Below, piece after piece: positions 1,281 through 58,062 of a DNA stretch of 64,000 nucleotides; position 1 is the first letter of the stretch, and each line of letters begins with the position of its first letter. Below the pieces are notes generated by a model. The model was not told the origin of the DNA. It made no database searches and saw only the letters and a list, made by a program, of their open reading frames with translations. The position numbers and the translations under genes are program-made. Source of the DNA: Piromyces finnis finn (taxonomy: Eukaryota; Fungi; Neocallimastigomycota); the NCBI GenBank assembly GCA_002104945.1, contig MCFH01000056.1, positions 1-64,000 of the forward strand, given 5' to 3'.

Positions 1281-2349
1281 AATTAAAACATTAATAAATA
1301 TATATATAATATATTCATTATATTTTTAATATATAATAAATAATTATAATATAAAAAATAAATGTTATATTAATATTTAGTAATATTTGAATGTATTAAT
1401 TATTATAATTACATCGTTAATAAATTGTATTTATATCTTCTTTTATCTATTGAGATATTTATATTATAAATATAATAGAATATATTATATGAGTATACTT
1501 TCTCTTTACGATAATCTTTTAAATTAAATGAAAAATACTATATCCTATCAATTATTATTGGCTAATATTTCTTAATTAACCTGCTTTGTATTTAATTAAA
1601 ATGAGTAAAACTAGGTGAGTAATCGTTAGAAAATCAGTCTTGAATGAAAACTAGTCTAATACTACTACATTGACTATTTACTATATTAACTATTACTTCA
1701 TTGAACTATTATTACTTCTACTACACACTATTACTACTAATAATAATAATAACCTCTTAATAAAATAGAAATTTATTTCTTTTATTGGAATAATTATTTT
1801 AGAATTTTATATTAAATATTTTTATAAAATATTATATTTTGTTGTCTACTAATTTCTTTTGATAATTATATAAAATTTATTGTTTTATTTAATTCTCTTT
1901 AAATTATAATCCTTTTTTATTTTTAATATTTGTAATTATAAAATATTAATGAAATAATAAAATATTTTATCAATACATTCCTTCAATTTGATACTATTTT
2001 TTTAAATAACTTTTAATAGAAAGCATTTCATTCTTTCTATTTAAAAACACTTTTTTTTCTTTCCTTTTAATACTATTATCCCATATTTATTATTATTTAT
2101 TATTTATTATTTATATTATTTATTTATAAATTAAATAGCCCTAGCCACCACCATTAATTTTATTCAAAAAGTTTTTTAATTACAATTTACTTTTTCATTT
2201 TAAATAGAATAATGAATAGAATAATAGAATAATGACATTCATAATAAATATTATAAAATATTATAAATATAAATAAAGGAAAAATAAAAATGTATAGTAT
2301 GCCTTTTTATTAAAAATAATAAATAAAAAAAATGGTAGGTGTTATTATG

Positions 2350-3246
2350 AGATTTTAATATTAATATATTTAAAATTGTGTTGTTTTTGTAAAGTATTCC
2401 TTGTAATAAAAACATCCCATAATAAATTCACTTTTTAATATGCTATTAACTGAATAGATTATGTAATCTGTATTTATAAAAGATAAATCCTTAATATAGA
2501 AAGGTATATTAACATCCACAATAAGTATAATTCTAATGTATCTTACTGTACACTATTAATAAAATATTCAAAATTCATAGTTTTAATAATATTAAAATAA
2601 TGATATAACTAAAGGTTAATATTACAAGATATTAGATATTGTTTCCTCTCCCCACTTTCTTATTCATACCTATTTAAATAAAAAAGATTACATTCTATTT
2701 TCAAAATTGTATGTACAACAATATATATATTTATTGTGTGCCACATAATGTATGTATTTTGGCTTATACCTTTGATCTATTACAATACATTAATAATTGT
2801 AATTCATTCTCAAAGTTTTTTTTTTATTTAATTAGCATTTAAAAAAGTGGAAGAAAAGAATCCTTTTCTCCAATGAATTATACTATAATCCATTTTATTA
2901 TGGGTTAATTTATATAATTCTTTCAATTCATTATTATCATTTGTATTTAATTTGTGGAAATAACTTAATGCTGATTGTGTTACAGGTTCACCAACTGATT
3001 GAGCTGCTAAAATACCAACATGAGTATTTTACGAGACTTGATTTTATCCACAATTATTTTAGTAAACTTATCACAGTCAATTTCTTCTGCTTTGATTTTT
3101 TTCTTTAAATAATTTCTTACTTTATTATTTATTTGATCAATATAAGGAATCAATCTTTTATTTTCTTTAAAATTTTTAGAAATTTCGTTACATATATAAT
3201 CAATATCTTCAACAGAAAAATATTGTATATTTTGAGATTCTTCCAT
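2350..3246 (-). pseudogene. Stand-alone C-terminal part of a multisubunit RNA polymerase largest subunit (RPB1/beta-prime, trigger-loop region); probably viral
   Basis: ORF 3007-3246 (own ATG) frameshifts into HVGILAAQSVGEPVTQSALSYFH (codons 3022-2954). This matches the RPB1 trigger-loop consensus VGxxAAQSIGEPxTQxTLNxFH. Downstream sequence is broken by stops, so the 3' end is approximate. Confidence 0.85.
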
Positions 3247-3863
3247 ATTTGAAATATTTATTTAAAATATATTTATATATTTATATAATATTTATAAAAT
3301 ATTTAAATAAAATATCTACAAAATATTTACTATAAATTTACAAAATATTTATAAAGTATTATTAATTATCATTTTATAATTTAATACATATATATGAATT
3401 ATAAATAAATTATACAATCTTTTTATAAAGAATTTACAAGAGAACTTTATATTTTTAAAAAATTATTTTAATTTAATACATATTTTATGATTTTATACTA
3501 AACACAGTTTATTAATTAATATACATAATTAATATATAAAAACCTTTATAAACTAATGATATTAAGGTTATTTACATTAATACATATAGAATATCATGAA
3601 ATTAATTATACATTACTAATAATATATATATATCATTATACATATATATATTATATATTATTATTATACATATTACAATGAATTAATATTATGCTTTTAA
3701 ATATAAATTTGTTAATTCTTTATGATAACAAAATTACAATATTGAATTCCAATTTTAAAAATTATTATTTAAATAATAACAAAATAAATAAATAAATAAA
3801 TAAATATAAAATTTAAAAAAAAAATAACTTTATACATCTACGATAGTATTAATATCTTATTAA

Positions 3864-6010
3864 CTAAAAAATCATATAAATAGAATTATTTTTGAAAGAT
3901 GAATAGATAGATCCATCTAAATTTCTTTTTAATATTAAATAAGGTTTATTAAGGATAGTTGATTTTAATATTTCTATGGATGCTTTATATGGATAATAAA
4001 CTTCATTATCCCATACACCATAGGTAATAACTTTTTTATTGTTTTCATCCATAATACTATAATGATATGCAGTTATATTTTTAATATTTTTACATAAAAA
4101 AGAAAATGATGGTAGTGTATTGTATAATTTATCATTATCTTTTATTATTGGTATTGTTGGTATTATTTCTGAATAAATCGATCTCCATAAATATACCTTT
4201 TCATCTGGAGATTCCTTTTCTGTTATTAAAACTGTTTTATTATCTGAAACATATTGTTTAATGTATTTAGTTAATGTAGCATTATCTATGATTGAAATTG
4301 AATTCTTTTTAAACATAAAAAATATAGCATGTACAAAATCATCATTAAAATTGAACAAACTCTTATTTAAACTTACTACATATTCATATCTATAATTAGG
4401 AAGTGTAAATAATTTACATGTATTTAACATTATTATTAAAAAGGGAAAAGAAGAATTACAACTGTAGACATAATCAAAAACACAATATGGATATACATTC
4501 ATATTATTATCTACTGAAAAAGATAGTATATTAATATCATTGTAATTGTAATTTTCATTTATTAATTTTAATTGTTTATTCTTAAACTTTTCTTTTACAC
4601 AATTTATTAATTCCTTCTGACTAGGAATATTAATATATTTATTTCATTTAGAGCATATTATAAATTTATTATTTATTTCTGGAATATCAAAATATTGTTT
4701 ATATAAACCTTGTAATTCATAACCATAAGAAATAAATAAAATGGAATGAAATTTTCCTTTACAAAGTTTGTCTAGTTTATAAGTAATATTAAATTAAACA
4801 GATTTTTCTTTTTCTTTGTACTTTCTTATCACTTTAACACATTTAGGAACTACATTTAATTCTGATACTGAATCAAATAATATCTTTTTGTCATGAAATA
4901 CAAAGTTATTATCAATAGAATTTTTATTTGTTGAAAGAGCAATTTTATATCCTGAATTTTCTGGTGATCTATAATAATTATTATTCCACTGTACATATGG
5001 TATATTATTATTAATACATTTTTCTTTATCAGCAATTACTGGTAATATCTTATCCTTATTATTAAAATATCTAGTATAATATTTTCCAAATAATCAATTA
5101 TAATTTATTTTTAATGGAATATTTAATACTTTATTTCTTTTATAATAACTTATATGAAAATCAATATATAATAAATAAAGATAGTTTAATATTATTTTAA
5201 CAGTCATATACATATACCATTCTAATTCTTGAAATTGGATAATTTCTGTAAATTGTTTATATTTGTTATATAGTTTCATATTCAATGACTGATTAAAGAT
5301 ATTCATTGTATATACTAATTTTTCTTTATTTTTTATTATATCTTCATTTTCATTGGTATATATATAGGGATATAAAGCATTTTCATATAACATCAAATCA
5401 AACAATTGAAAATTTATATTTATTGGATAAGTAAAAGAAACAATACTTGGTTTGAATCTAATTAGTATTTGATCACTTGAATAATTTAAACATGGTAATA
5501 ATTTACAAATAATATTATCATAAGTATCTCTTTCATAAAATGTTATTTTATTTCTAGTGATTCTTATACTATCATGACAACATTTAATAATTATGAAATT
5601 ATCTGAATCTTTAACATCCTTATTTTTATCTTTTGCAATTAACACTTGATTATAGTGATACGTTTCAGTATATCTTTTATTAAAGTAATGATAGTAATTT
5701 ATTCTTTTGATAAAAGCAGTTACATATTGACAAGTATTTGGTAACTCTAGCTTTATTATTTTATTATAAATATCTTTAAGCGTATATGAAGGTATATTTT
5801 TAGATATATAATAATTTGTTTTAGTTGTATCTTTTAAATCAAAATTATATTTAAATATTTTTTCATTACATATTTTTTCCAAAGTATTAATAAGCAAAAA
5901 ATTATTCAGATTGTCATTTATATTATTATTGCTATAGTTAATAATATATTGATCTTTAGTAAGATTATTGCAATTAATAATACTTATTCCTTCAAAGAAT
6001 GAAAAATATT
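3864..6010 (-). pseudogene. Probable NCLDV early transcription factor large subunit (VETF-L / A7-like), about 715 codons
   Basis: ORFs 5094-5897 and 3864-4502 and the gap between them lie in one frame, broken only by TGA 5094-5096, TAA 4794-4796 and TGA 4644-4646. Blocks FDLMLYENALYPYIYTNENEDIIKNKEKLVY, LFGKYYTRY..ILPVI and NNYYRSPE resemble my recollection of giant-virus VETF-L. No introns. Confidence 0.55.
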
Positions 6011-6119
6011 TATATTATTATTATAATAATAAAATCTTTTAAAAATAATAAGATACTTATTAATATTTATATTATTATTAATATTAAATATTTTAAATTT
6101 GTATTAATATTATTAGTAA

Positions 6120-7390
6120 CTGATTTGAAAGTATTTTTGTGTTTCTTTTCCTGCTAAATTAGCAGATTTATAATAAATTCCTGAAATATAATTACCAAAT
6201 TCTTTTATACTTTCTTACATTTGTTTTTTTTTTTATTTTCATTCATAGAATATTTTATAGTATTATCATAATTAATCATTTCTTTAAATAACTCTTCAGT
6301 TTTTATTTCTGAATCTTTAGAATATTTAGAAATAAGATTATGATTATATTTAACAACTTTATCAATAGCTTTAGAAAATGATTCATTTTTTAAATCTTCT
6401 AGAGATTGAATATTTTTTGGTAATTTCTTACTTAATTTACTATAGTTTTGCTTAAAAAAAAAATAGCATTTACAGCATTAATGCTTCCCAGTGATTAGTA
6501 GTTAATATATTGGTAATTTAATTCATTAGAGAATCTTAGCCATCTTTGAGCTTCCATGTCATTACCACTATTTTGAATTAGATTAGAATCTTCATCAGCT
6601 TTGCTATTAATATTTGATTTGTCAATATGCATATTAATTAAGCTTTTTTCTGATGAACTATTAGAATTCAATTTAATACTACCTTCTTTGGGAAATTTAG
6701 CATTGATATCATATTTATCTTGATTACTTTTTTCAATTTTTGACATAGTATTATTAAAATTAATATTAGCAACATATCTAACCCTATTATCTAATTTGTT
6801 ATTAAATTCAACCATACTAATAAAAATAATATTATTCAAATCACTACTATACATATAACCATAGCATATTGAAATAGCAGCTAAGTCATTTTAATTAGAT
6901 GATATAAGATACATGATTTAATATATGTAATTCATTTCCTTTATAATTTTTTAATAAATTAATTTAATTTCCTTCATTATCAACATATATATATGTATAT
7001 ATTTTGTATCTGTAATAAACTTATATGTATTTTTATCTATATTTTTGTTATTTGACAAATTTATACTATTTTCAAAACCCTTTAATACTAATGTTTTACT
7101 TTCAGGCGAAATCTTCTCGTTTTTAATTATATCAATAGCATTACTGTTGTCTAAGTTTTCAAGATCAAGATAATTTATTTTGTGCATCTAAAAATCATTA
7201 GAATCATATTCTTTTTATCCTTCTTAGATACAATACTATCATGTAATTTGTGAATAACTTCACTATTATTTCTTAAATTACTGGTATTATATTTTTTAAT
7301 ATTTTTATTAAGTAATTCATGTAAATTGTTATAAATAGTTAATTATGTATCTCTGTGAACATCATCATATTTTTTTAAAACTTTTTTTTA
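6120..7390 (-). pseudogene. Unidentified decayed gene co-directional with the viral-like cluster
   Basis: ORFs 6951-7187 and 6495-6854 plus coding-like segments on either side (KQNYSKLSKKLPKNIQSLEDLK..., KEFGNYISGIYYKSANLAGK) join across frameshifts at homopolymers. No family recognised. Confidence 0.45.
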
Positions 7391-8612
7391 AAAAACTTAT
7401 TATTTAATATAATTGTTTATTATTTTTAATAATGTAATAAATATTTATATTAATTTATAATATTTAAATATATATAATAATTTCAAATATGTAAAAACAT
7501 CTTTCTACTATTAGTGCTACTCTTGATAAAATTAAATAATATTAATAATTTTATTAACATTTTAAAATGTTACATAAAACTTGTTTTAAGTTAAATGTAA
7601 AATATATTATAAAAGCATTATTATATTAATAATTTATATAAATTATTTTCAATTTTGTTGTTTATTATATTTAATTGTATATATAGATATTCCATAAAAT
7701 AATAATAAAATTAATATTGCTAAATAATCTGAATAATCAAACAATGTATTACCAAATATTAATCCAACATTAATTATAAAAGCAATACAAAAGAATATTT
7801 TATGTAAATTATTTTCAAATTTCATGGTGTTGTTTATTATATTATAAAAATTATATTATAAATTATAAATAAAAATTATTTTATATAAACATAAATTAAT
7901 ATTTTAATATTTTATAAACATAAATTAATGTAATATTGAAATAGATTATCATGTAGTTTTTAGTACATTTTATTTAGTACATTAATGTATTTATCATATT
8001 TTTATAATCATGTGATAAATTAAAGTATTTATTAGAGTATTTAATATAAACAGATAAACAAATTTTATAGTTAGATTTTGGTATAAATTAGTAGAAAATA
8101 TAGTAAATTAGTCTTTATCTAAGAATATAATAGTTAGGAGATATTCTTACGATCATTTAATATTAAGTATATAAGTCAACCACAAATCCTTAGTGTATTG
8201 AAACGAGTTGTATCAATTATTTAATGTATAATATATATTATAATAATTTAGTATATATAATATAATAAATTAATACTTATAATATATTTATTAAAGAATC
8301 TAATGATATACATTCATTCAAAATAATATACAAATTTGGTATTTAAATTATTATACATAATATCTATTTTATTATTGTTATAATGATTTCTAGGAAACTT
8401 ATAATGACACCACGAATATTAAGACACAGGTCAATAAATTCTTATTATTAAAACTTTATTAATGTATATTATAAATTTTTTTTTGTTAATAACAACACGA
8501 GGAAAAAAAAGAAAAAAAAGATTATTAACATTTAACATTATATTATCTCATACTACGGTTTGACCAATAGTTTTAAGAATAACTAATTTAATAAAAAAAT
8601 TAAAAATAAAAT

Positions 8613-9231: not shown

Positions 9232-9658
9232 TGTAAAAAGATGTGTCTTTAACAATAAAAAACAAGTTATAATATTTACTAAATAACTTAGTAATATTAA
9301 CACTTTAAAATATCCTGTAAATTATTAATTTATAAAAATATTATTAAAAACACATAGAATTTAACTTAATAAGTTAGTGTTTAATAATATAATTATTTAT
9401 TAATAAAATCTCGGTTTTTTTAAAATATTTGGGAAAATTCACTCGTATTTATACTAAAATTTTTTTAAATTAATTTATAAAATTTTTTCAACTTAATTTT
9501 TAGCCAATCAATAATCTTCATATAAAATAAAATTTAAAATAAAATAAATAAAAATTATAATTTTTAAAAACAGTATCTATGAGGTCTCGAACTAGTGTCA
9601 TTCAGACTCAAAGTCTTAGCTACTAACCACTAAGACAATTTAGTTATTTCTAGCATTT
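9232..9658 (-). mobile_element. Family H LTR, with a tRNA-like segment near its right end
   Basis: Starts TGTAAAAAGATGTG. Colinear with copies at 23149-23567 and 29190-29623, and with reverse copies at 14466, 19141 and 50061. Right end interrupted by a family A LTR. Confidence 0.8.
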
Positions 9659-10155
9659 TGTAAGAAATATTTGTGGCCATAAGTTTGCCCACAAATATTT
9701 CAATTGAAACCATATATTCTGGTCACCATTTATTGGCCAGATATATGGATAACCATATATTAATGGTTATTAATTAAATAGGAAGTTTATTTGCTTTACC
9801 CAATCAAGTGGTAAAGAAAATAAACTAATATAGTTAAATAGTATAGTTAAAACTAACGTTAAATACTTTAGCGTTAGTATTAGAGTAAATTAATAGCTAT
9901 AATAATAAATAATGTATAATAATTATAATAAATAAATAAAAGATATAATTAACAAATAATTATTAAGTAGATTTATTTCATAATAATATTTATATATTTA
10001 TTTATATTTATTTTAGTGTTATAATATTTATTTTATTTCTTTTATTATTTTTATAAAACTTTATTTAGTTATTAACTCGTATAGAGAGGTAATAACTAAC
10101 TTAATTAACTAAATTATATAACTTATTAACTAATATTATAAAAACACCTTTTACA
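9659..10155 (+). mobile_element. Family A solo LTR
   Basis: TGTAAG...TTTTACA, same sequence as the LTRs of element 43259-50060. TSD CATTT on both sides. Confidence 0.93.
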
Positions 10156-11552: not shown

Positions 11553-12045
11553 TGTAAGAAATATTTGTGGCCAAACTTATGGCCACAAATATTTCAATTG
11601 AAACCATATATTCTGGTCACCATTTATTGGCCAGATATAAGTATAACCATATATTAATGTTTATTAATTAAATAGGAAGTTTATTTGCTTTACCCAATCA
11701 AGTGGTAAAGAAAATAAACTCATATAGTTAAATAGTATAGTTAAAACTAATGTTAAATACTTTAGCGTTAGTATTAAAGTAAATTAGTAACTATAATAAT
11801 AATTAATGTATTATAATTATACTAAATAAATAAAAGATATAATTAAAAATAATTATTAAGTAAATTTATTTCATAATAATATTTATATACATTTATATTT
11901 ATTTTTGTGTTATAATATTTATTTTCTTTCTTTTATTATTTTTTATAAAACTTTATTTAGTTATTAACTCGTATAGAGAGGTAATAACTAACTTAATTAA
12001 CTAATTATATAACATATTAACTAATAATATAAAAAATCTTTTACA
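11553..12045 (+). mobile_element. Family A solo LTR
   Basis: TGTAAG...TTTTACA, homologous to the other A copies. Flanks are not an exact TSD. Confidence 0.85.
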
Positions 12046-14465: not shown

Positions 14466-14900
14466 CTTAACAAAAGTACTATAAATAACTAAATTGTCTT
14501 GGTGGTTAGTAGTTAAGATTTTGAGTCTGAATGACACTAATTCAAAACCTCATAGATACTATTTTAAAAAATTATAATTTTATTTTATTTTATTTTAAAT
14601 TTTATTTTATATGAAGATTATTGATTGGCTAAAAATTTTAAGTTGAAAAAATTTTATAAATTAATTTAAAAAATTTTCGTATAAATTCGAGTGAATTTTC
14701 CCAAATATTTTAAAAAATCGAGATTTTATTAATAAATAATTATATTATTAAACTCTAACTTATTAAGTTAAATTCTATGTGTTTTTAATAATATTTTTAT
14801 AAATTATTAATTTACAGGATATTTTAAAGTGTTAATATTACTAAGTTATTTAGTAAATATTATAACTTGTTTTTTATTGTTAAAGACACATTTCTTTACA
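14466..14900 (+). mobile_element. Family H LTR
   Basis: Reverse complement of 9232-9658. Ends CACATTTCTTTACA; the 5' terminus is degenerate. Confidence 0.8.
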
Positions 14901-14940: not shown

Positions 14941-15569
14941 TTTAAGAAATTGTTATAGATAAAACTTTTTAAGTTTTATTGTTGAAGCTTTTCTTTAAAA
15001 GAAATATTTTCTTTACTTAAAGTAGTAGAATTAGTACGCTTTAGAAGCGGTATATAATTCAAACTATAAATATTTTACAATTTGTGGCCATAAGTTTGCC
15101 CACAAATATTTCAATTGAAACCATATATTCTGGTCACCATTTATTGGCCAGATATATGCATAACCATATATTAATGGTTATTAATTAAATAGAAAGTTTA
15201 TTTGCTCTACCCAATTAAGTGGTAAAGAAAATAAACTACTATAGTTAAATAGTATAGCATAAACTAACGTTAAATACTTTAGCGTTAGTATTAGAGTAAA
15301 TTAATAGCTATAATAATAAATAATGTATAATAATTATAATAAATAAATAAAAGATATAATTAACAAATAATTATTAAGTAGATTTATTTCCTAATTATAT
15401 TTATATATTTATTTATATTTATTTTAGTGTTATAATATTTATTTTATTTCTTTTATTATTTTTTATAAAACTTTATTTAGTTATTAACTCGTATAGAGAG
15501 GTAATAACTAACTTAATTAACTAAATTAAAATAATAACCTATTAACTAATTAATAATAAACCTTTTACA
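14941..15569 (+). mobile_element. Family A LTR containing a 129-bp TG...CA insert (14951-15079)
   Basis: AAGAAAT | insert | ATTTGTGGCC reconstitutes the A start. Ends CCTTTTACA. Confidence 0.8.
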
Positions 15570-16293: not shown

Positions 16294-17344
16294 ATGAAAT
16301 TTATAAAAATATTTATTGCTTTTTTTGTTATTAGAGCTTACTTTAGCAAAACGTTGTGGACCTGAGAACTCTAATAAAAAATGTCCAAGTAGTGAATACT
16401 GTATTAAGTGGGGATATTGCAATATCTCAAATGATTATTGTAACACTGGTTGCCAAATTGCTTTTGGAAAATGTAATAGTGCTATAAAAAAAACTACAAC
16501 TAAAATTAAGTCTACCACGAAAATAAAATCAACTAGTAAAGCTAAAACTACTACAAAAATTAAATGTACTACAACATTTAAACAAAAAGAAATATCTTCT
16601 AAAATATATTATTGTGGTCCTAAGCATGATAATATAAAATGTTCATATATGTAATGTTGAACACTAAAAGAATAGATTAGGATATCTATTCTATTACAAT
16701 AACACTAAAATTTTAAAATAAAATAAAAAAATTGTTTTATAAAAATGTCTTTTATTATAATAGAATTTTTAATAATAACAATTATTGATAAAATGATGAA
16801 AAATATCTTCTATTTATATTTTTCCTAAATACATTTATATTATATTATAACTATTTATTTAAAATATATTATTATTTAAAACATACACTAAAATCTTAAT
16901 TATTAATAAAATATTTACACTATAACTATTTTAGTAATATTAAATAGGCAATTCAAATCAAGTACTATTTAATTTGAATATGTGCCCATGTATTATTGAT
17001 ATATTAATCATTTATTATTTATATACTATTCATCTTTTTCTATCAAAAACAATACTAAAACTAAGAAATTAAATTGAGAAATTTAATCTATTTGTAAAAC
17101 ATTAAAAATAAATTAATAATTTATTTTGTTTCAAACTTTAATTATTAATAAATAAATTATGTCTCATTTTCTTTTTCTGTAATATAAATTGTGTAACTTA
17201 AACAATAATACTTGTGGCTTAAGTTACATTAAAGATATCAAGTTGAGGCGTTTGATATCTTTACAATATAGAAACTGTTGTAGTAAAGACGGTAAATGCG
17301 GATTTGGTCGTGGAAGTGGTCGTCAGCCTGAATTTGATGGATGA
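16294..17344 (+). pseudogene. Secreted chitin-binding (CBM18/hevein) two-domain protein, disrupted
   Basis: ATG 16294 signal peptide, with a frameshift in a T run. CBM18 domain RCGPENSNKKCPSSEYCIKWGYCNISNDYCNTGCQIAFGKC, then a Thr/Lys linker. The second CBM18 (YCGPKHDNIKCSY|RNCCSKDGKCGFG) is rejoined in frame when the 16650-17265 LTR and one TSD copy are removed. Confidence 0.88.
16650..17265. mobile_element. Family G solo LTR
   Basis: TGTAATG...GATATCTTTACA with TSD ATATA. Confidence 0.93.
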
Positions 17345-17905: not shown

Positions 17906-19140
17906 GTTACTACGGACCATGGTGTTCAGTTCACCAGCAAGTTGTAGAGGGACATTATGGGGTTCTTTGGCGTAGAAGTAAACCTTGCTACCACTAGCCA
18001 TCATGAAACGGTTGGTCATGTAGAACGTAATAACTCCTACCTAAGTATGTATCTTAGATGCTTTGTAAAGACCTTTGATGATGATGAATGGCTGAAGTAC
18101 TTGTACTTAGCTGAGTTCTTCTACAATAATGCAGTCCACAGTTCTACCAAGCAATCCCTATTCCTAGCTTTGTATAACTACCAGGTACATATGAACCTTC
18201 AGGATTCAGAGCTTGTCCACTCACTTGGAGAAGCTCCTGTACTAGACAGCTTTGCCAATAACATAGGTATCTTAAAACATATATTGGACATCTCAAGAAC
18301 ACGGTTCTTAGACCACTTAGACCATAGAAGAGAACTTAACTACCCAAAAATTAGGCTCATGGATTTTGTGTGGTTAAGAAAACCAGAAAACTACAACATT
18401 CTTCCCTTCTACAAGCTACAAACAAGGAAGTACGGACCCTTCAAGGTTATTGGAATTGACGAAAGCAAGCTTAACTACCGGTTGGATATCAGCAAGTCAC
18501 CTTTCCCCAACGTCTATCCAGTGTTTCATATCAGTGAGTTAGAATCATACCACAATAAACCAGAAGAACTAACACTGGCACCAGAAGGCTACCAGAAAAT
18601 TATCAAAATCCTTAATGCCAGAAGAAAGAAGGACAACTACCAGTATCTAGCTACCTTTAGTGACTTTAGGCAAGAGTGGGTTTATGCTGATATCATCGAC
18701 AATAACTCCCACTATGATAAACTACTAAAAGAATTTCAAGATAAATGCCACCAGGAATTCATGGTTAGTGTCCAAAACCCTGCCTAGGTTTTCACCTTAG
18801 GGGGGATTGTAAGAAATATTTGTGGCCATAAGTTTTCCCACAAATATTTCAATTGAAACCATATATTCTGGTCACCATTTATTGGCCAGATATATGCACA
18901 ACCATATATTAATGGCTATTAATTAAATAGAAAGTTTATTTGCCTTATCCAATCAAGTGGTAAAGGAAATAAACTAGAATAGTTAAATAGAATAGTGTAA
19001 ACAAACGCTAAATACTTTAGCGTTAGTATTAAAGTAAATTAATAACTATAATAATAATTAATGTATGATAATTATAACTAATAAATAAAAGTTATAATTA
19101 GAAAATAATTATTTAAGTAAATTTATTTTATAATCTTATT
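17906..19140 (+). mobile_element. 3' remnant of a family A Gypsy element (integrase C-half, divergent chromo-like domain, PPT, truncated 3' LTR 18808-19140)
   Basis: ORF 17957-18787 is closely similar to 48700-49544. PPT TAGGGGGGA precedes TGTAAG at 18808. Confidence 0.92.
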
Positions 19141-37298: not shown

Positions 37299-37357
37299 CT
37301 AAGAAAAAGATCGCTACCTCAGTGCCTCGTTTATTTGCTTACTTCTAATTTTTTTTT

Positions 37358-40300
37358 ATGGATAACTCTGCTGATTTGAAGAACGGTTTTGATGGCAACC
37401 GTCGCTACCTGAAGGGATTCTTAGCAAAAATGGACATGATCTTTATGATCCATCCTGAAATAGGAAGGGACGATGGAGAAAAGGTCTTCTACGTCGTTAG
37501 TCGCCTCTACGGGGATGCAATGAATTGGGCTGCTACCTTGATTAACAACCATGATCCTTGCTTACAGGATTATGGCGCCTTTGTTGGAAAGCTGAAGGCT
37601 GCTTTTGGTTTTCAGGATATGGTCTATACTGCCAACCAAAAGCTCAAGAAGATCAAACAACATGGCCTATCCAATACTCAAGAGTATATCAAGGAATTTA
37701 ACTACTATGCTGATGAATCCACTTGGAATGAACAAGCCAAGATGGATGCTTTTGTTGATGGGTTGGACGATAGAATCGCCACCCATATCCTTCAGATGTT
37801 TCCTGGCCCTTCTACCTTGATAAACTTACAAACAATAGCCAGTCGTATAGGAAGTAGATTGGCATGCCACCAAGAGGAAATAAACAGAAGATCCAATAGA
37901 AGTTTCCGTTCTAAACAAAGCTTCCAATCCCGCTCCTCAGAAAGATTTACAAGTAAATCCACTCAGCCCAAGAAGGAAAATAATTTTGGCCCCATTTCAA
38001 GTGAAGAACGTAGCCGCCGAATGAAAGAGAATCTCTGCTTATATTGTGGTAAACCTGGTCACCGATTATCTGAATGCCCTATTAGAACCAAAAAGGAAAA
38101 CCATACTAATAATGCTGGGGTCCATGTTTTGAATGAACAAGAAAAATCCACTCGACTTTCGGATAACTCCTCTTTACCTCAAACGGTTATCGATGTTGAT
38201 GTTGTTCTTCCATACAAATCTGTCGGAACTAAAGTTCTCTTAGATAGTGGTTCACAATTCTGTTTGATAGACCACGCCTTTGTTAAGGCCCATGAGATCC
38301 CTATAATTACCAAAGTAAAATGCCCACAAATTATAGGTATCGGAGGTCACCAAAAGATTATCGGCCAGACTTGGCCTATAACTGTGGAACACATGAATCA
38401 CTCATGCCAGTTACAATTTTACGTCGTAGAATTGCCTTCTTACTGTTGTATTCTTGGCTCTGATTGGCTGGCCCTTCACAATCCGACAATCAATTTTGCT
38501 AGTAAGGACGTTTCCTATCATTCTGAATACTGTAAGGAAAATTGCTTAAGGAAAGAATCTGCTAGCTCTACCACTTCTGAACTCGAAGACCAATCGAAGG
38601 ACGAAATGTCAGTTGGAAATACACCTGAATACCCTTTCAATGTATTCACTTGTCTAGAAGAACCTGAAGTTGAGTCACCCCAAATTCCAATTCACTACTC
38701 TCAACACTCCAAAGTGTTCGAGGAAAGGCTCGCTGATAAACTCCCTCCTCATCGCCCGTACGACTGTGAGATCAACCTGAGACCAAATAGCAACTTGTTT
38801 TATGGTCCAATCTACCGACTTACTGAGAAAGAATCAAAGGTATTAGAAGAAACTATTAATGAAAATTTAAAAAAGGGGTTTATCCGCAAATCCAAATCGC
38901 CAGCTGGTGCTCCCGTTCTGTTTGTCCCGAAGAAGAGTGGAGAACTTCGTATGTGTATCGACTACCGCCGCTTGAACGAAATCACCATTAGGAACTCGTA
39001 CCCTCTCCCATTGATCCAAGACATGTTGGATCATCTAGGAAAAGCTAAGGTGTTCTCGAAGCTAGATCTTCGATCCGCCTATAACTTGGTAAGAATCAAA
39101 GAAGGCGATGAATATAAGACCGCCTTCACCTGTCAATTTGGCCATTTCGAATATCTGGTAATGCCTTTCGGTCTCAAGAACGCTCCTGCAGTCTTCCAAC
39201 ATTTTATTAACGACGTTCTTGAAGGCATTATCGGTAAATTCGTCTTTTCGTATATTGACGATATTATCATTTTCTCTGATAATATAGCCGAACATCATGA
39301 ACACGTCAATGAAGTCCTTCGTAGACTCGAAGAAGCCGGACTGTACGCTAAACTTGAAAAATGTCTATTCGACTCTCCTTGTCTTGACTTCCTTGGTCAT
39401 AGAATCTCTGCCTCTGGTATCGGAATGGACCCTAATAAGGTGAAAGCCATTGCGGAATGGCCGACTCCTAAATCGGTCCATGAACTACAATCCTTCCTAG
39501 GCTTAGCCAACTATTATCGTAGATTTATTCCTGGCTTTGCTAAGATTGCTCACCCACTCCACCAACTTTGCAAGAAGAACACCGCCTTCGTTTGGAACGA
39601 TACCGCTCAAGATGCTTTTGATGCTTTGGTTAAGCATTTTATTAGTCAGCCTATCCTTGCATATCCTGATGTTGACCTACCTTTCGTTGTCGAAACCGAT
39701 GCAAGCAGCTTCGCCATAGGTGCTGTATTGTCTCAAGTCAACAAGTCCGACAATATTCTTCACCCTGTTGCGTTCTTTTCTAGATCCCTTACAAACCCGG
39801 AGAAGAACTACCCTATCTATGATAAAGAACTTTTGGCTATCGTCGCGTCCTTAGAAGTGTGGAGACATTTTTTGAAAGGTGCGAATCATCCTTTCAAAAT
39901 TATATCAGACCACAGAAACCTCCTTTTTCAGAAGAAACCGGAGAAGATGACTCAGAGATTAATTAGATGGTCCCTTTTCCTTGCTGAATTCGATTTTGTC
40001 ATTGAATATCGCCCTGGTTCCTCGAACGGGAAAACCGATGCCTTGTCAAGAAGACCTGACTATCTTGATCACTCTTGCAATTCCGATTCTAATAACTCTG
40101 TCTTTCGTCCCGAAAATTTCAGCTCCTGCTTTGCTTCATCCACTCCTTCTTCTCTTCTTGAAAAAATTGCTCTCTCTTGTAAACTTGACAAATTCTTCAT
40201 TGAGACTTCTAATCAACTTCTCAATGATAATTGTTCTTCTGACTACAAACTTAGTAACAACGTCCTCCTTTTCCAAGATAAAATCTATGTTCCTAATGAT

Positions 40301-41552
40301 TGCCGAGTTGAAATTCTGTCTTCTTTTCATGACTCCCCTGCTGCCGGCCATTTTGGTATTTCAAAAACTTTATCCTTGATTTCCCGTAACTACTGGTGGC
40401 CCAAAATGTATCAGGATGTTAAGGACTATGTCCGTTCTTGTGAGGTCTGCTGTCGTTCGAAATCCTCTAGACATAAACCTTACGGGTTATTATCCACTCT
40501 TCCTTTAGGTGAACGTCCCTGGTCTTCCATTGCTATGGATTTTATCACTGACCTCCCCTCTTCTCGTGGATTTACCTGTATCTTCGTTGTCATTGATCGA
40601 TTGACAAAAATGGCTCACTTTATCCCTCTTGAAAAAGTTCCCACTGCTGAACGTGCTGCCGAAGCTTTCATTAACAACGTCTTCAAACTTCATGGATGCC
40701 CCTCCGACATTGTTCTCGACCAAGGTTCTCAGTTCACTTCAAAGTTTTGGAAGAAATTCTTTGCTACCCTCAAGATTGATTTGAAATACTCTTCTGCTTA
40801 TCACCACCAATCCAATGGCCAGACGGAGAGAGTGAACTCCGTTGTAGAACAATATCTACGCTGCTTCTCAAATTACAAAGGCACTAACTGGATCGAATAC
40901 TTAAGCCTAGCTGAATTTAGTTACAATAATTCAGTTCAAGAATCTGCAAAACAAACACCCTTCTTCTTGAACTATGGTTTCCATCCTAATTTTAATCCAA
41001 CAATTCCAACAACAAGTGAAGTTCCAAGAGCTGAAGAATACACAAAAGAATTAAAAGAAATTATCAGCACCCTCAAGAAAAACCTTTCGGAAGCCCAAAA
41101 GAAACAAGAACATTTCGCCAATAGACATAGACAACCAGGCCCGTCATTCAAACCAGGAGAAAAGGTATGGTTAATCAATAATAATTTAGTTAAGGGAAAT
41201 AAAAAATTCACCCCTCGGAAACTCGGTCCCTATGAAATTGAACAACAAATATCAGAAGTCTCATTCAAATTGAAACTCCCTGGTAACATGAAGATTGATC
41301 CGGTATTCCATAAATCATCTCTCGAGCCTTACTTCGAAGGGAAAAGTACAAACCGAAAAGTTCAACCTCCACCACCTGTCATTATAAACGAAGAGGAGGA
41401 ATACGAAGTAGAAGAAATTCTGGACAAAAGAAGACGCTATAACAAAACTCAGTACTTGATCAAATGGAAAGGATATCCTATTTCAGAAGCCTCATGGGAA
41501 CCCGAAGAAAATCTGAACTGTCCAGCAAAGCTAAGAGAATTCAACAAGACCC

Positions 41553-41557
<5 letters not shown>
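37358..41557 (+). CDS. Gag-Pol polyprotein (gag, CCHC, PR, RT, RNase H, integrase, chromodomain), 1399 aa
   Basis: [14 protein letters not shown]; LLDSGS; YIDDII; ETDAS; HDSPAAGH...CEVC; MDFIT/DQGSQF/TER; [10 protein letters not shown]...YLIKWKGY...SWEPEENL. Confidence 0.97.
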
Positions 41558-52750: not shown

Positions 52751-55700
52751 CTACTCCCTGAATGGTAATATATTTTTAAAATGGACATTTCTTTCTAAAT
52801 ATTGTCCCGTCAGTTCATCTTGTAATTTAGCTGTGTTCCAAGATATTTCTCTAATAATAAAAGGACCAATAAAATAGGGTTCTAACTTGTTTCTTTGTTG
52901 GTTCCTAATCTTTACCTTATCCCCTATTTTGTAGTTATTTTTATTGTTCATACTTTGTTGAGCTAATCTTCTACTTTTCCAATAATTTATCGTCCCTAGC
53001 ATTTTACTGGCAGCTTGTTTTACCCATTTGGCGTGGTCTAGAAATCTTTCCATTAATAATTCTTCTATTGATCTTTCTTCTATACTTAATATTGAATTTC
53101 TTATATTTATATCAATTGGAATATTTTCTGATCTTCCATACAAGAGTTCAAAACTTGAATAACCAGTAGAAACAGATTTACAAGTTCGAATAGCCCATAA
53201 TGCAATTGGTAACAATACATCCCAGTTTTCATTGTTATCAGAGAAATTTCTTAATTGCTTACCAATTTCTCTGTTTCTGTTTTCCACCAGTCCATTAGAT
53301 TCCGGATGGTATGTACTAATGAAATGAATGTATACATCATAAAGATCTACAAATATTTTTGTGTACTCTGAAACAAATTGTACACCATTATCTGTTATTA
53401 TTAATTGTGGAGTTCCATGCCTACTAAATACTTCAACTAAGAAATTAGTTACGTCTTGAGAAATAGTAGTTCTAACTGGTTTTGCTTCCACCCATTTTGT
53501 AAAGTAATCCACACATACCATTATATATTTATTCCCAAGTGTGGTTTCTCTTAATGGACCTATAATATCAAGACCAAGTCTAACAAAGGGTGCTTCTACA
53601 GGAGTTCTAAACTTTTCTGTCGGCTTTGGTAATGGCTCAGATTTATTTAACTGACATATTTTACATAAGGAGACATATTTTTTTACATCAATGATTAAAT
53701 TTTTCCAATAAAATTTGTTTTTGATTCTTTCATAAGTTTTCTGTACTCCTTCATGTCCAATTCTATGCTCTTTTGCAATTATTTTAATTTTAGTGTAAGG
53801 GTCATCAATAATCTCCCTAAAATTATTATTATCCTTGAAATATAATTTATTGTCAATAGTGACAATTTTATCATTTAAAAATTTTTTCATAAAATCGGAA
53901 ACAAATTTTTCGTTCTCCTCCTCGGTAAAATTGGAACTATTGGTTTTGTTGGAAATATCGATATTTTTGATATTATTATTATTATTATTATCATTATTAT
54001 TATTATTATTATTAATTTCCAAATTATCCAAATTATTAGCAATAAACTTATTAATGTTACTATTATTCTCATCTTTATTATTATTGTCATTACCATCAGA
54101 AATAGTAGTGTTAACAATTAAATTCTCTTTCAAAGTTATTCTGGATAAAGCATCAGCAATTTTATTAGCTTTTCCTGGTTGATAAATAATATTAACTTTT
54201 AATTGACTAAATTTATCACACCAGCGTTGATGTTTCTTTGTATTCGGTTCTCCTTTCTTAATGATGGGAACTAAAGGTTCATGATCAGTATAAAGAATGG
54301 TTTGAAATGGATTCCCTAGAATATATGGTTCAAATTGTAAAAGACAATAATAAGCAGCAGTACCTTCTAATTCAGTAGTGGTATAATTTTCTTCCGTTTT
54401 CTTAATACTTCTACTAACAAAATAAACTGGGTGTTCAATATTGTCATCATATAACTGTAGTAAAACACCACCAATTCCATATCCACAAGCATCAGATCTA
54501 ATTATAAAAGGAACATCAAATTTAGGAAAACAAAGAGTTGGTGCATTAACTAGGCAATATATCAGATTTCTGAAACTTTGTTCTTGAATTTCTGTCCATT
54601 CATATTTAATTTTTTTCTTTAATAGTTTGCAAAGAGGAGCTGCAATAGCAGAATAATTTTCAATAAAATTTCTGTAATAACTAGTCATACCTAAAAATGA
54701 ACGTAGTTCAGAAATATCTCGTGGTGGGTTCATTTCTTTAATAGATGCGACTTTCTTTTCCAAAGGAAGTAAGCCATCAATAGTAACCCGATGACCTAAA
54801 GCCTCTATTTCAAGTTGACAAAAAGAACATTTCTCAATATTTAACTTTAATTTGTTATTACGTAAAATAGTAAAAACTTTTCTTAAGTCATTAATATGAT
54901 CTTCAAAACTGGGAGAATAAATAATAATATCATCTAAATATATTTGAACACATTCATTAATTAAATCGAAAAAGATACGATTCATTTCACGCTGAAAAGT
55001 GGCAGGAGCATTAGTTAATCCAAAAGGCATAACTTTAAAATAATAGTTACCAAATTTAGTGGTAAAAGAAGTTTTATCCATATCTTCTTTGAACATAGGA
55101 ATTTGATGATATCCACTAAATAAATCGATTGTTGAAAAGATTTTTGAGTCTTTAAGTGAGTCAAAAATTTCTTTGATTTTAGGTAGGGCGTATGCATCTT
55201 TAACAGTTACATTATTTAATTTTCTAAAATCAATGCAAAGGCGCCATTTTCCATTTTTCTTCTTAACCATAACCACTGGAGAAGCCCACGGAGAATGAGA
55301 CGGTTCAATTAGACCTTTATTAATTAGTTTTTCTAATTCTTCTTTTAAACCTGATAATTGAACTTGTGAAATATTATAAGCTTTTTGTTTAATAGGGCGC
55401 ACATTATCCTCCAAAATAATGTGGTGTGGTAACAAATTTGATGGTTCCAAATCATCAGAAGATACAGCAATAACATCATTAAAATTTTTAAGAAGAGAAC
55501 TAAATAAATTTTTATCAACATCGTTATCAACTTTGATATTAGAAATTATATTATTAATAATATCCATTTTATTATTATTATTATTTTCTATTTTGTTAGG
55601 TCTATTTTCTTCAACTACAGCTAAAATAGTACTAGCGGTTATATCTTCATAATCAAAATAAATATCTTCTACATCATTGGAATAGCAAGAAAGAGCTTGG

Positions 55701-57172
55701 GATTGAAATATAGAAATATCTTCAACATCAACAATAGGAATAAATTTATTATCAGAAGATTTCAAAATTAATGTTTTATCAACTGTATCAATCATAATGC
55801 GATTTTCATTTTGTGTTTTAAATCCAATAATAGCATCATAAAATGAATCGTTTTTATCTGATATTCTAAATATAGAATCAAATTCAATTTTGCCTATTTT
55901 TACATGAAGTTTCACTAGATCATATACTCTAGCAACATCATCAACCATTGCTTGTCTTATTCTTCCTCTAATTTGTCCTACAATTTCAAAATCTTTAATT
56001 TTATTATCTAAAAAGGAGCGCGTAATTAAATTTGTATTACTACATGCATCAATAAATATAGCTGCTGAATGGGAATTGATTGTACCATGAACAACTGCAA
56101 CATCATGATCGTTTACTTTGGTTCTTCCATCGATATTAATGAAATTATTATTTAATTTATACAAATTATTATTATTTTCATCAACTTCAGTGGTACTAAT
56201 AGTAATATTATCCAACTTTAAATTCTTTAATCCCTTAATTAATTCAGCTTTGGACGTTTTACTAACACCTAAAAGTTGTCCAAAAGTAATATTAGCTGGA
56301 GTATTTAATAAATCGGTACATATATTATATTCTTCTGAATCTTTTAGCATTTGGATTGAAGTTTTTGTTTTTATACTATTAGAATTATCACTAGGTAATA
56401 TATTTTCCAAAGTGGATTCTTCATTTATACGCGTGTTTTTACGCGTTTTCTTTACCTTATTAGCTTCTTTCATATCTATATCGGTATTTAAACTAGTAGT
56501 CTTATTTTTCTTTGATTTATCTTCATTTTCTAATTTAAAATTTACTTTCTTGGTTTTATTATTCTTATCAATTGAATTATCATTAATATTATTATTCAAT
56601 TTTATATTATTATTTATATCTTTTTCATTATTATTATTATCCGAAGTGTTATCTTTAATATTGCTATAATTATTTTTATTATTGATATTGATATTGTTAT
56701 TAATATTATTATTATCATTATTATTTAAATTATTATTGTTAAAATTATTACTAGAATTATTAGTATTATTATTGGTATTAAAATAATTATTACTAATATT
56801 ATTGTTAAAATTATTTTCATTTGTAATATTGCTATTCATATTATTAAAATTGTTATTATTCATATTATTAATGTTATTATTAGTGTTAATATTAGTATTA
56901 ATATTTTTAAAATTATTCTTTTCTCTTTCTGTATTAGGAATTCTGGAATATGGATTTTTAGCTTTTAATTTCTCATCTCGATGTCTTTTAGCTGCAGCAA
57001 CAATAGCTTCATAATTAGGTGAATAAGTAGTTGCTGTAACATCGGGATTCATTGTATTATTATTATTATTATAGTAATAGTTATTATTAGTGTTGGCAGT
57101 TTGATTAACGGAAGTTTGCCCTCTTCCATAACCTAGTTTTTTGTATAATATGTAGAGTTCATGTGTGGGCAA
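52751..57172 (-). CDS. Pol (Asn-rich leader, PR, RT, RNase H, integrase), expressed by a probable -1 frameshift
   Basis: IDACS protease; YLDDII; RSDAC/TDH RNase H; HRIGH...CKIC; LDIIGP/TDNG/LVENRN; GPF. No chromodomain. The listed ATG is unlikely to be the real start. Confidence 0.95.
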   Translation of the reverse strand: MPTHELYILYKKLGYGRGQTSVNQTANTNNNYYYNNNNNTMNPDVTATTYSPNYEAIVAAAKRHRDEKLKAKNPYSRIPNTEREKNNFKNINTNINTNNNINNMNNNNFNNMNSNITNENNFNNNISNNYFNTNNNTNNSSNNFNNNNLNNNDNNNINNNININNKNNYSNIKDNTSDNNNNEKDINNNIKLNNNINDNSIDKNNKTKKVNFKLENEDKSKKNKTTSLNTDIDMKEANKVKKTRKNTRINEESTLENILPSDNSNSIKTKTSIQMLKDSEEYNICTDLLNTPANITFGQLLGVSKTSKAELIKGLKNLKLDNITISTTEVDENNNNLYKLNNNFINIDGRTKVNDHDVAVVHGTINSHSAAIFIDACSNTNLITRSFLDNKIKDFEIVGQIRGRIRQAMVDDVARVYDLVKLHVKIGKIEFDSIFRISDKNDSFYDAIIGFKTQNENRIMIDTVDKTLILKSSDNKFIPIVDVEDISIFQSQALSCYSNDVEDIYFDYEDITASTILAVVEENRPNKIENNNNNKMDIINNIISNIKVDNDVDKNLFSSLLKNFNDVIAVSSDDLEPSNLLPHHIILEDNVRPIKQKAYNISQVQLSGLKEELEKLINKGLIEPSHSPWASPVVMVKKKNGKWRLCIDFRKLNNVTVKDAYALPKIKEIFDSLKDSKIFSTIDLFSGYHQIPMFKEDMDKTSFTTKFGNYYFKVMPFGLTNAPATFQREMNRIFFDLINECVQIYLDDIIIYSPSFEDHINDLRKVFTILRNNKLKLNIEKCSFCQLEIEALGHRVTIDGLLPLEKKVASIKEMNPPRDISELRSFLGMTSYYRNFIENYSAIAAPLCKLLKKKIKYEWTEIQEQSFRNLIYCLVNAPTLCFPKFDVPFIIRSDACGYGIGGVLLQLYDDNIEHPVYFVSRSIKKTEENYTTTELEGTAAYYCLLQFEPYILGNPFQTILYTDHEPLVPIIKKGEPNTKKHQRWCDKFSQLKVNIIYQPGKANKIADALSRITLKENLIVNTTISDGNDNNNKDENNSNINKFIANNLDNLEINNNNNNNDNNNNNNIKNIDISNKTNSSNFTEEENEKFVSDFMKKFLNDKIVTIDNKLYFKDNNNFREIIDDPYTKIKIIAKEHRIGHEGVQKTYERIKNKFYWKNLIIDVKKYVSLCKICQLNKSEPLPKPTEKFRTPVEAPFVRLGLDIIGPLRETTLGNKYIMVCVDYFTKWVEAKPVRTTISQDVTNFLVEVFSRHGTPQLIITDNGVQFVSEYTKIFVDLYDVYIHFISTYHPESNGLVENRNREIGKQLRNFSDNNENWDVLLPIALWAIRTCKSVSTGYSSFELLYGRSENIPIDINIRNSILSIEERSIEELLMERFLDHAKWVKQAASKMLGTINYWKSRRLAQQSMNNKNNYKIGDKVKIRNQQRNKLEPYFIGPFIIREISWNTAKLQDELTGQYLERNVHFKNILPFRE
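57085..57142 (-). promoter_or_regulatory. -1 ribosomal frameshift signal
   Basis: A_AAA_AAC (57142-57136) directly before the gag TAG, followed by a GGAAG-AGGGCAAA-CTTCC hairpin. Confidence 0.75.
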
Positions 57173-58062
57173 AATCTGGCAATATGACCTGGTTCATGGC
57201 AGAAATAACAGGTCTTTATGTGTAAGTTCTGCATTCCGTTAATCAAATCATTCATTTCATCATTTTGATTATTAATGCTAGTAGTTAATCTTGTATTATT
57301 ATTAGAATTTGATATATTAGAATATTGTGTACTAGCACCATTATTCATACTATTATAGCTTTTACTATAATTAACATTATTACCATTATTATTACTATTA
57401 TTATTAACATTATTATTTACTTTAATATTATGTGGAGGATTGTAATTATTGTAATTATTCGAATATCTAGGCCTACTATAAGTATAATTCGAATTATTAT
57501 AATTGTTATTATTAGTACGACGGTAGTTCATAGACGAAGTACTAGCTCTAAGATTTGGACCATTATGAATTTCATAATATCTTTCAGCAATCCCCATAGC
57601 ATCTTCAATTGATTTTGGATCTGCGAATGCAACCTTTTCATAAACATCATCTTGTGCAACTAGAGCGAATTCATAGTCATACACAGAAATCTTGTCTTTG
57701 AATTCATCTGGCAGATCATCATAAAGCTTTATAAACTTTTTATCGAATTCTAATACATTTTCATTAACTTCAATTTTTAACATTTTTAATTTCCTAAATT
57801 TGGCAGCTTTATCATTGTTTGAATGATATTTCTTCATAAGTATTACTTTACATTCATTAAGAGATAAGTCTCTATTTACTTTTCTCCTATGTTCCAGAAT
57901 CGCTTTGGTAGCTTCTTCACGCGTACTAGCCAAAATATAACGGTAGATATCTTCATTAGCTACCTTTTCTATAGCTAACCAATTTTCTAAAAGATCCACC
58001 CAGGTATCTACATCTTGGTTAGTTCCTCCAATTGTTGGAAGTGGAATTTTAAATTCACCCAT
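57133..58062 (-). CDS. Gag, 309 aa
   Basis: C-terminal CYFCHEPGHIARFC zinc knuckle; correct position after the PBS and 5' UTR. Confidence 0.93.
   Translation of the reverse strand: MGEFKIPLPTIGGTNQDVDTWVDLLENWLAIEKVANEDIYRYILASTREEATKAILEHRRKVNRDLSLNECKVILMKKYHSNNDKAAKFRKLKMLKIEVNENVLEFDKKFIKLYDDLPDEFKDKISVYDYEFALVAQDDVYEKVAFADPKSIEDAMGIAERYYEIHNGPNLRASTSSMNYRRTNNNNYNNSNYTYSRPRYSNNYNNYNPPHNIKVNNNVNNNSNNNGNNVNYSKSYNSMNNGASTQYSNISNSNNNTRLTTSINNQNDEMNDLINGMQNLHIKTCYFCHEPGHIARFCPHMNSTYYTKN

Follow-up and report, generated by a model that had tools for sequence, protein, structure and literature searches.

Three decayed frames on the minus strand

Near the left end of a 64,000-nucleotide stretch from the gut fungus Piromyces finnis (contig MCFH01000056.1, positions 1 to 64,000; in the following the window) lies a cluster of decayed genes at 2350-7390, which a preliminary description had attributed to an endogenous giant virus. 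The region has a guanine-cytosine content of 14-21% and holds three co-directional decayed frames on the minus strand, namely a polymerase piece, a frame of 716 codons and a third frame, arranged as follows:

2350-2869 (no strand): unassigned AT-rich sequence with no match to RP1c tails, the PDB or Pfam
2870-3246 (-): 5' part of RP1c, the C-terminal half of RPB1, recognised by PF04998 and by tblastn to relatives
3864-6014 (-): predicted VETF-L pseudogene, with 3 stops, 17 homologs and, for the full-length relative P0007, viral matches of the predicted fold
6070-7390 (-): decayed coding-like sequence of low stop density, in the shifted frames 7178-7342, 6435-7187 and 6070-6477

That three adjacent frames share the minus strand, as initially described, is supported by stop statistics and by Pfam. 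The long frame, first put at about 715 codons, indeed comprises 716 (3867-6014, minus strand) and is interrupted by three stops (4644-4646, 4794-4796 and 5094-5096), whereas 1000 first-order Markov resamples average 75.9 stops, the lowest among them having 54. Its first approximately 25 residues are absent. Alignment of the polymerase piece and the long frame to their relatives (tblastn) reveals no intron-sized gaps, and for these two genes the earlier label of intronless therefore stands.

A trigger-loop motif is detected within 2831-3028 of the minus strand (Pfam PF04998, RNA_pol_Rpb1_5; E 8.5e-8), while the N-terminal part of RP1c is in another frame, 3010-3261, with the frameshift near 3025-3040. 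Congruently, relatives match the window by tblastn in two frames, 3234-3025 and 3028-2870, at 63% and 67% identity to one of them (P0079) and at 65% and 71% to another (P0077). Five such relatives were recovered among 46 candidates of 124-396 residues, and all five, as well as the window copy, have a methionine start some 70 residues upstream of the trigger loop. The start at this fixed internal point identifies RP1c as a separate C-terminal half of RPB1. Homology ends at 2870; the tails of three longer relatives scored no higher than shuffled sequences in nine of nine frame tests over 2300-2875, and the RP1c copy was therefore cut or deleted there. Thus, the trigger-loop polymerase gene of the preliminary description is upheld by the PF04998 match, but its reach to 2350 is not. 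Within the remainder, a 60-residue frame (2373-2552) found no PDB match, and 2350-2869 as a whole found none in Pfam. The window copy cannot make either full protein.

A predicted VETF-L next to RP1c

For the long frame, 17 homologs with identities of 43-88% were recovered among 7997 scored candidates, stemming from Piromyces, Neocallimastix and metagenomes, and one of them is the model of the window locus itself. A profile search of 1.84 billion representatives returned 38 matches, four already known, and among ten further matches of the 38 the named members are all gut-fungal. Sequence methods gave no tie of the long gene to any virus. The fold searches used the AlphaFold model of a full-length relative (P0007) as query; the RP1c model had a pLDDT of 41.9. 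Foldseek yielded 29 viral matches at E<=0.001 (best E 3.5e-11), 16 of which are named early transcription factor large subunit (VETF-L), whereas 12 are unnamed or uncharacterized and one is labelled otherwise. Marseilleviruses and pithoviruses head the VETF-L matches, which agrees with the grouping of the published DNA polymerase near Pithovirus, and in the overall ranking, which is not a phylogeny, pithoviruses, marseilleviruses and iridoviruses stand above mimiviruses. The first match for the same relative in the Atlas, a viral cluster at 0.83, serves as no more than a lead.

The predicted fold matches VETF-L of pithovirus, marseillevirus and iridovirus, and A7 of vaccinia, along most of the protein. 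The likeness may include the TBP-like N-terminal domain: residues 91-221 align with TBP-type chains at Z 5.5-5.8 (VIA-align), a hint rather than firm support. The PDB fold search of the model found nothing at E<=0.001, and its rank 2 is a 708-residue chain of the poxvirus pre-initiation complex (E 0.038), presumably VETF-L, which lends some weak support. In vaccinia, the TBP-like domain of VETF-L recognises early promoters, according to the available part of that account (PMC12917281). The gut-fungal family is smaller, with about 735 residues against mostly 1000-1500 in the top viral VETF-L matches, and at 9-14% identity has no match to them at the sequence level. Aggregated, the fold matches give good grounds for considering the long gene a predicted VETF large subunit.

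A different origin would be from the host itself. In that case, the RPB1 piece would derive from a host polymerase as a processed pseudogene, and the long frame would represent a fungal gene family. Indeed, the best PDB sequence match of an RP1c relative (P0080) is yeast Pol II RPB1, at E 3.6e-6, and every named VETF-L relative found by sequence is gut-fungal. The yeast match is however weak, with about a third of the residues identical over some 90 (counted from the alignment), and a fission-yeast-type Pol I reaches just E 0.31. Judged by sequence, this similarity is too distant for a recent host pseudogene, the host's own RPB1 being outside the comparison. Furthermore, RP1c has its own methionine at a fixed internal point, the pair is syntenic elsewhere, the fold matches are viral, and the RP1c family is excluded from fungal Pol I-III in the available parts of Gong et al. 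(PMC7017919). We regard a host origin as extremely improbable. The nucleocytovirus origin and the early transcription factor guessed in the preliminary description are thus borne out, by the 63-71% identity to RP1c on scaffolds of published length and by the viral fold matches of the long frame; neither of the outcomes it had set against itself, a host polymerase or a long frame without viral homolog, came true.

A probable further copy of a published family

A virus family of this kind is already known in the P. finnis genome, and the window locus is very probably a further copy of it. Gong et al. (2020) described fundsalphaviruses in gut fungi, with six DNA-polymerase loci in P. finnis (PMC7017919; here and below as far as the available parts of the paper and its supplement go). 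Their RPB1 is split into RP1n and RP1c and placed with the nucleocytoplasmic large DNA viruses, the DNA polymerase groups near Pithovirus, and sister loci carry D5 primase-helicase, UDG and a separate RPB2. The published maps are compact and name no capsid; they present methyltransferase, UDG, RPB2, D5, DNA polymerase, RP1c, helicase and RP1n on contigs 32-40 kb long, in gene orders that are rotated between contigs (the text is machine-read, and columns may be misread), and cover just eight domains on each side of the DNA polymerase. The relic proposed for a gut fungus is thus of a sort that exists, but that had already been published for P. finnis. Among titles and abstract starts, subscription papers being mostly outside this search, no subsequent work on these gut-fungal elements was found.

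The window locus shares with the fundsalphaviruses the host species, the split RPB1, the stops and frameshifts and the retrotransposon-rich surroundings. At two further P. finnis loci, the gene models for RP1c and the long gene directly follow one another (ORX41414/41415 and ORX41574/41575). The contigs concerned measure 127,315 and 168,386 bp, which equal the scaffold lengths published for MCFH01000089.1 and MCFH01000083.1; the long gene is 59-64% identical to the proteins there. The closest RP1c relatives of the window likewise sit on scaffolds with published fundsalphavirus lengths, and a Piromyces E2 relative is on a contig of 68,043 bp, the published length of KZ151082.1. With its disabling mutations (stops, frameshift), its Ty3 elements and its position on a P. 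finnis scaffold of 359,038 bp, the element is in an endogenous state. None of the read pieces listed spans the examined stretch. This scaffold is outside the five P. finnis scaffolds of Gong et al., as would be expected of a copy without DNA polymerase, their probe. In the available supplement, the terms 'VETF' and 'early transcription' have no matches, and the gene of about 735 residues is unnamed.

Considering these data, the locus very probably derives from an integrated element related to nucleocytoviruses, of the fundsalphavirus kind, and is a broken and no longer functional piece of it, with the start of RP1c and a predicted VETF-L. Several points weigh against this reading. The window genes appear orthologous to those of the published loci, with scaffolds matched by length alone, and the branch joining the window subfamily to two published loci has a support of 88/89. 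The viral grouping of RPB1 is taken from the report of Gong et al. The VETF-L call is from structure only, on a model of moderate quality (pLDDT 58.5, pTM 0.45) with fold-match TM-scores of just 0.13-0.27; the top VIA-align match for residues 91-221 is an unrelated enzyme (Z 6.1), and Pfam and PDB sequence searches of the family gave nothing meaningful. Finally, fundsalphavirus loci are defined by a family B DNA polymerase. At this locus, which is a fragment, none came up when 1301-3864 and 6020-8550 were scanned against Pfam in six frames, nor in scans of 20 other open reading frames (ORFs). The scanned parts also contain no RPB2, D5, helicase, capsid or packaging genes, and no RP1n, methyltransferase or UDG, of which heavily decayed copies could escape detection.

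Other known systems are less similar. Mycodnaviridae resemble the locus as endogenous nucleocytoviruses of zoosporic fungi, but are capsid-bearing, were found through capsid genes, reach 350 kb and are kin of Imitervirales and Algavirales; gut fungi are unmentioned in their main text and in the four of ten supplementary files available (PMC13533422). Mriyaviruses, nucleocytovirus relatives of 35-45 kb, are in the size range of the intact element suggested below; in the parts available they have a capsid and no DNA and RNA polymerases, opposite to the fundsalphavirus maps (PMC11253617). In archaeal Rpo1C (A''), the split of RPB1 likewise precedes the trigger loop, at a similar position, and residues 35-170 of P0080 align with its residues 25-163, near the Rpo1C N-terminus. 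However, at E 1.4e-5 there is no sign of close kinship, and on sequence grounds the two splits are likely independent events.

Cytoplasmic linear plasmids of the yeast pGKL2 type also encode an RNA polymerase in two parts, along with a helicase and a capping enzyme; a protein-primed DNA polymerase and terminal inverted repeats are further features of theirs. Descent of the genes from such a plasmid would fit the AT-rich, intronless locus and its split polymerase. Chitin-binding domains in the published maps, one of them beside a zymocin-type chitinase in Zancudomyces, would fit as well, but yeast linear plasmids are not known to us to carry a VETF-L, and the D5 primase-helicase, the UDG, the separate RPB2 and the Pithovirus-grouping DNA polymerase of the sister loci argue against it (PMC7017919), rendering this origin very unlikely. 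In the window, the ORF at 16310-16651 on the plus strand has a chitin-binding domain (PF00187, E 2.4e-7) and a signal-like start; the viral gene maps of the published loci repeatedly show such domains, yet these are also common host genes.

The third frame is harder to place. At 6498-7187 it has three stops in 230 codons, against 24.6 expected (none of 1000 resamples as low). Its single homolog among 1495 candidates is the gene model of the window locus itself, and no credible Pfam match was found; a decayed DNA polymerase was considered, and had no Pfam support. This gene model, ORX43043.1 of P. finnis on the scaffold of 359,038 bp, matches 6564-6854 along 97 residues at 100% identity, which places the window in this species, and has been spliced onto the long frame. 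Both ends of the third frame have related copies in sequencing runs, with the lowest depth (157) at 6468-6705, and in one run (X1) a DNA contig joins 6437 to 6951 with seven letters between, consequently representing a related copy without the middle of the frame. As far as sequence tells, this is a real coding-like remnant, for which a viral origin is neither shown nor excluded. Hence, of the three viral genes initially proposed, RP1c and the long frame hold, while the third has no relative that makes it viral.

On the right, the flank is filled with retrotransposons as first described, with Ty3 long terminal repeat (LTR) retrotransposon ORFs from about 8550 onward (Pfam). Two Ty3 polyprotein frames are unbroken, at 37349-41554 (plus strand, 1402 codons, with a chromodomain) and at 52754-57193 (minus strand, 1480 codons), and the remaining Ty3 elements of the window are broken. 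A repeat of 300 nucleotides is present four times at 91-100% identity (9669-9968, 11563-11862, 15080-15379 and 18818-19117); its copies start with a hairpin-like palindrome of 38 nucleotides and are possibly LTRs or a miniature element. An inverted pair of about 430 nucleotides (9232-9659 and 14473-14900; 92-95% identity) is spaced by 4.8-5.3 kb. Among the 25 longest pairs shown, none is a long inverted repeat enclosing the locus, which is itself a fragment. To the left of the locus, at 411-1369 of the minus strand, stops and a frameshift break up an AAA-ATPase-like gene (PF09820, E 2.7e-11); in the available maps of Gong et al., some fundsalphavirus loci are likewise flanked by AAA-ATPase labels.

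Copies, intact relatives and the parent element

Gene models related to the long gene are present on P. finnis scaffolds of at least ten different lengths, as anticipated by the earlier suggestion of more viral genes elsewhere in the assembly. Every P. finnis copy seen is shorter than the relatives of 726-748 residues. A 20-protein tree joins the window copy to three further decayed copies from P. finnis at a support of 100/100, and an insertion of about 14 residues is common to these four. In run X1, summed contig depth is 1300-6500 over the long gene against 157 at the exactly matching 6468-6705, values that are not a copy number. Among the sequencing runs listed as containing the stretch, none is RNA; two runs guessed to be RNA also contain contigs of related copies, which has no bearing on expression.

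Full-length relatives recur in nearly identical form outside this species. In a 90%-identity cluster of 80 members (40 read, 15 listed), 11 of the 15 listed are proteins of 736 residues from one assembly of Neocallimastix 'constans'; these variants (17 accessions) differ by 3-26 residues, and 10 of the 11 are on contigs of 36-108 kb. For a metagenome cluster of 16 members, the 15 listed all have 734 residues and differ by 1-5. Two pairs of identical VETF-L proteins have accession numbers that are 15 (KAL6588294/309) and 24 (ORX41574/598) apart. The full-length counts are subject to eukaryotic gene callers splicing out stops, as the window's model does, and the copy counts to inflation by haplotigs. 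Scans of viral contigs, prokaryote genomes and a plasmid collection returned no related loci, and a metagenome scan gave two short contigs from 234 pattern matches. On one of them (L001, 2.9 kb), an intronless ORF at 79-693, which we take to be Ras-like, is directly upstream of a frameshifted VETF-L relative at 981-2866; the pairing may reflect a chimeric contig or a host neighbour. New relative to the published family are the predicted VETF-L identity of the long gene, the copies on at least ten P. finnis scaffolds and the 11 listed full-length N. 'constans' variants, with further ones in metagenomes.

In an intact element, RP1c and the separately encoded RP1n would together form the large polymerase subunit, with the trigger loop of RP1c closing the active site. 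By homology, VETF-L would act as in vaccinia, binding early promoters via its TBP-like domain and bringing in the polymerase, and with the D6/D11-type helicase of the published maps would start early transcription without host factors. The two products would then belong to the element's own transcription system. The window copy belongs to a P. finnis subfamily marked by the shared insertion. This subfamily likely reached several scaffolds either by integrating repeatedly or by being duplicated later within DNA rich in retrotransposons, the copies then being truncated and decaying.

The near-identical full-length relatives in other gut fungi suggest that the parent element may still be multiplying. 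A refinement of the favoured reading holds that this parent, rather than a virion-forming giant virus, is a compact element of roughly 30-55 kb derived from nucleocytoviruses, with a degenerate capsid or none, forming tandem arrays or circles in gut fungi and keeping its own replication and transcription genes, of which the window is a dead piece. The 11 listed N. 'constans' variants, 10 of them on the 36-108 kb contigs, are in line with such a form, as are the identical proteins with nearby accession numbers and the rotated orders in which most named genes fit the 32-40 kb published contigs. Moreover, labels in the available capsid and A32 trees include no rows for four gut-fungal genera, compared to five for a control genus, in a search by tree label form that rows labelled otherwise would escape. 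However, the Pithovirus capsid protein is divergent, so that a capsid could be missed (PMC9546926, available part), the short contigs could represent haplotigs or repeats of host chromosomes that were collapsed, the published maps reach just the eight domains per side, and the scans yielded no intact element DNA. We hold this refinement as possible but rather doubtful. Equally tentative is a still-active element of about 30-55 kb and about 15-25 genes, with no recognisable capsid, in cultured Neocallimastix, the window being its dead fragment; that it would in addition carry a complete poxvirus-style kit (split RPB1, RPB2, VETF and a capping methyltransferase) along with replication genes is, jointly, no more than a tentative proposal.

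The copies might instead be fossils of a larger, virion-forming pithovirus-like virus, spread by repeated infection or host segmental duplication and none of them active, which is conceivable without being probable. The shortened P. finnis copies and the LTR-rich flanks are congruent with this, as are divergent Neocallimastix lineages (P0103/P0121 and P0113) at 25-30% identity, but the near-identical full-length variants in one assembly and in metagenomes point to recent copying or continued selection. The divergent VETF-L lineages also include P0123, which with P0113 represents a piece of 211 residues on large scaffolds of three Neocallimastix assemblies, possibly an old fixed insertion. As for the 'giant' parent initially proposed, nothing shows that the parent was of giant size.

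Taken by itself, the locus is an ordinary dead remnant of a family described in 2020. The predicted VETF-L beside RP1c nevertheless implies that early transcription was carried out by the elements themselves, and provides a family-specific marker that finds copies without DNA polymerase. With near-identical full-length copies in cultured Neocallimastix and in gut metagenomes, the question of a live DNA virus of gut fungi versus a capsid-less derivative becomes directly testable in existing cultured strains. If true, a compact active element would represent a giant-virus lineage turned intracellular mobile element.

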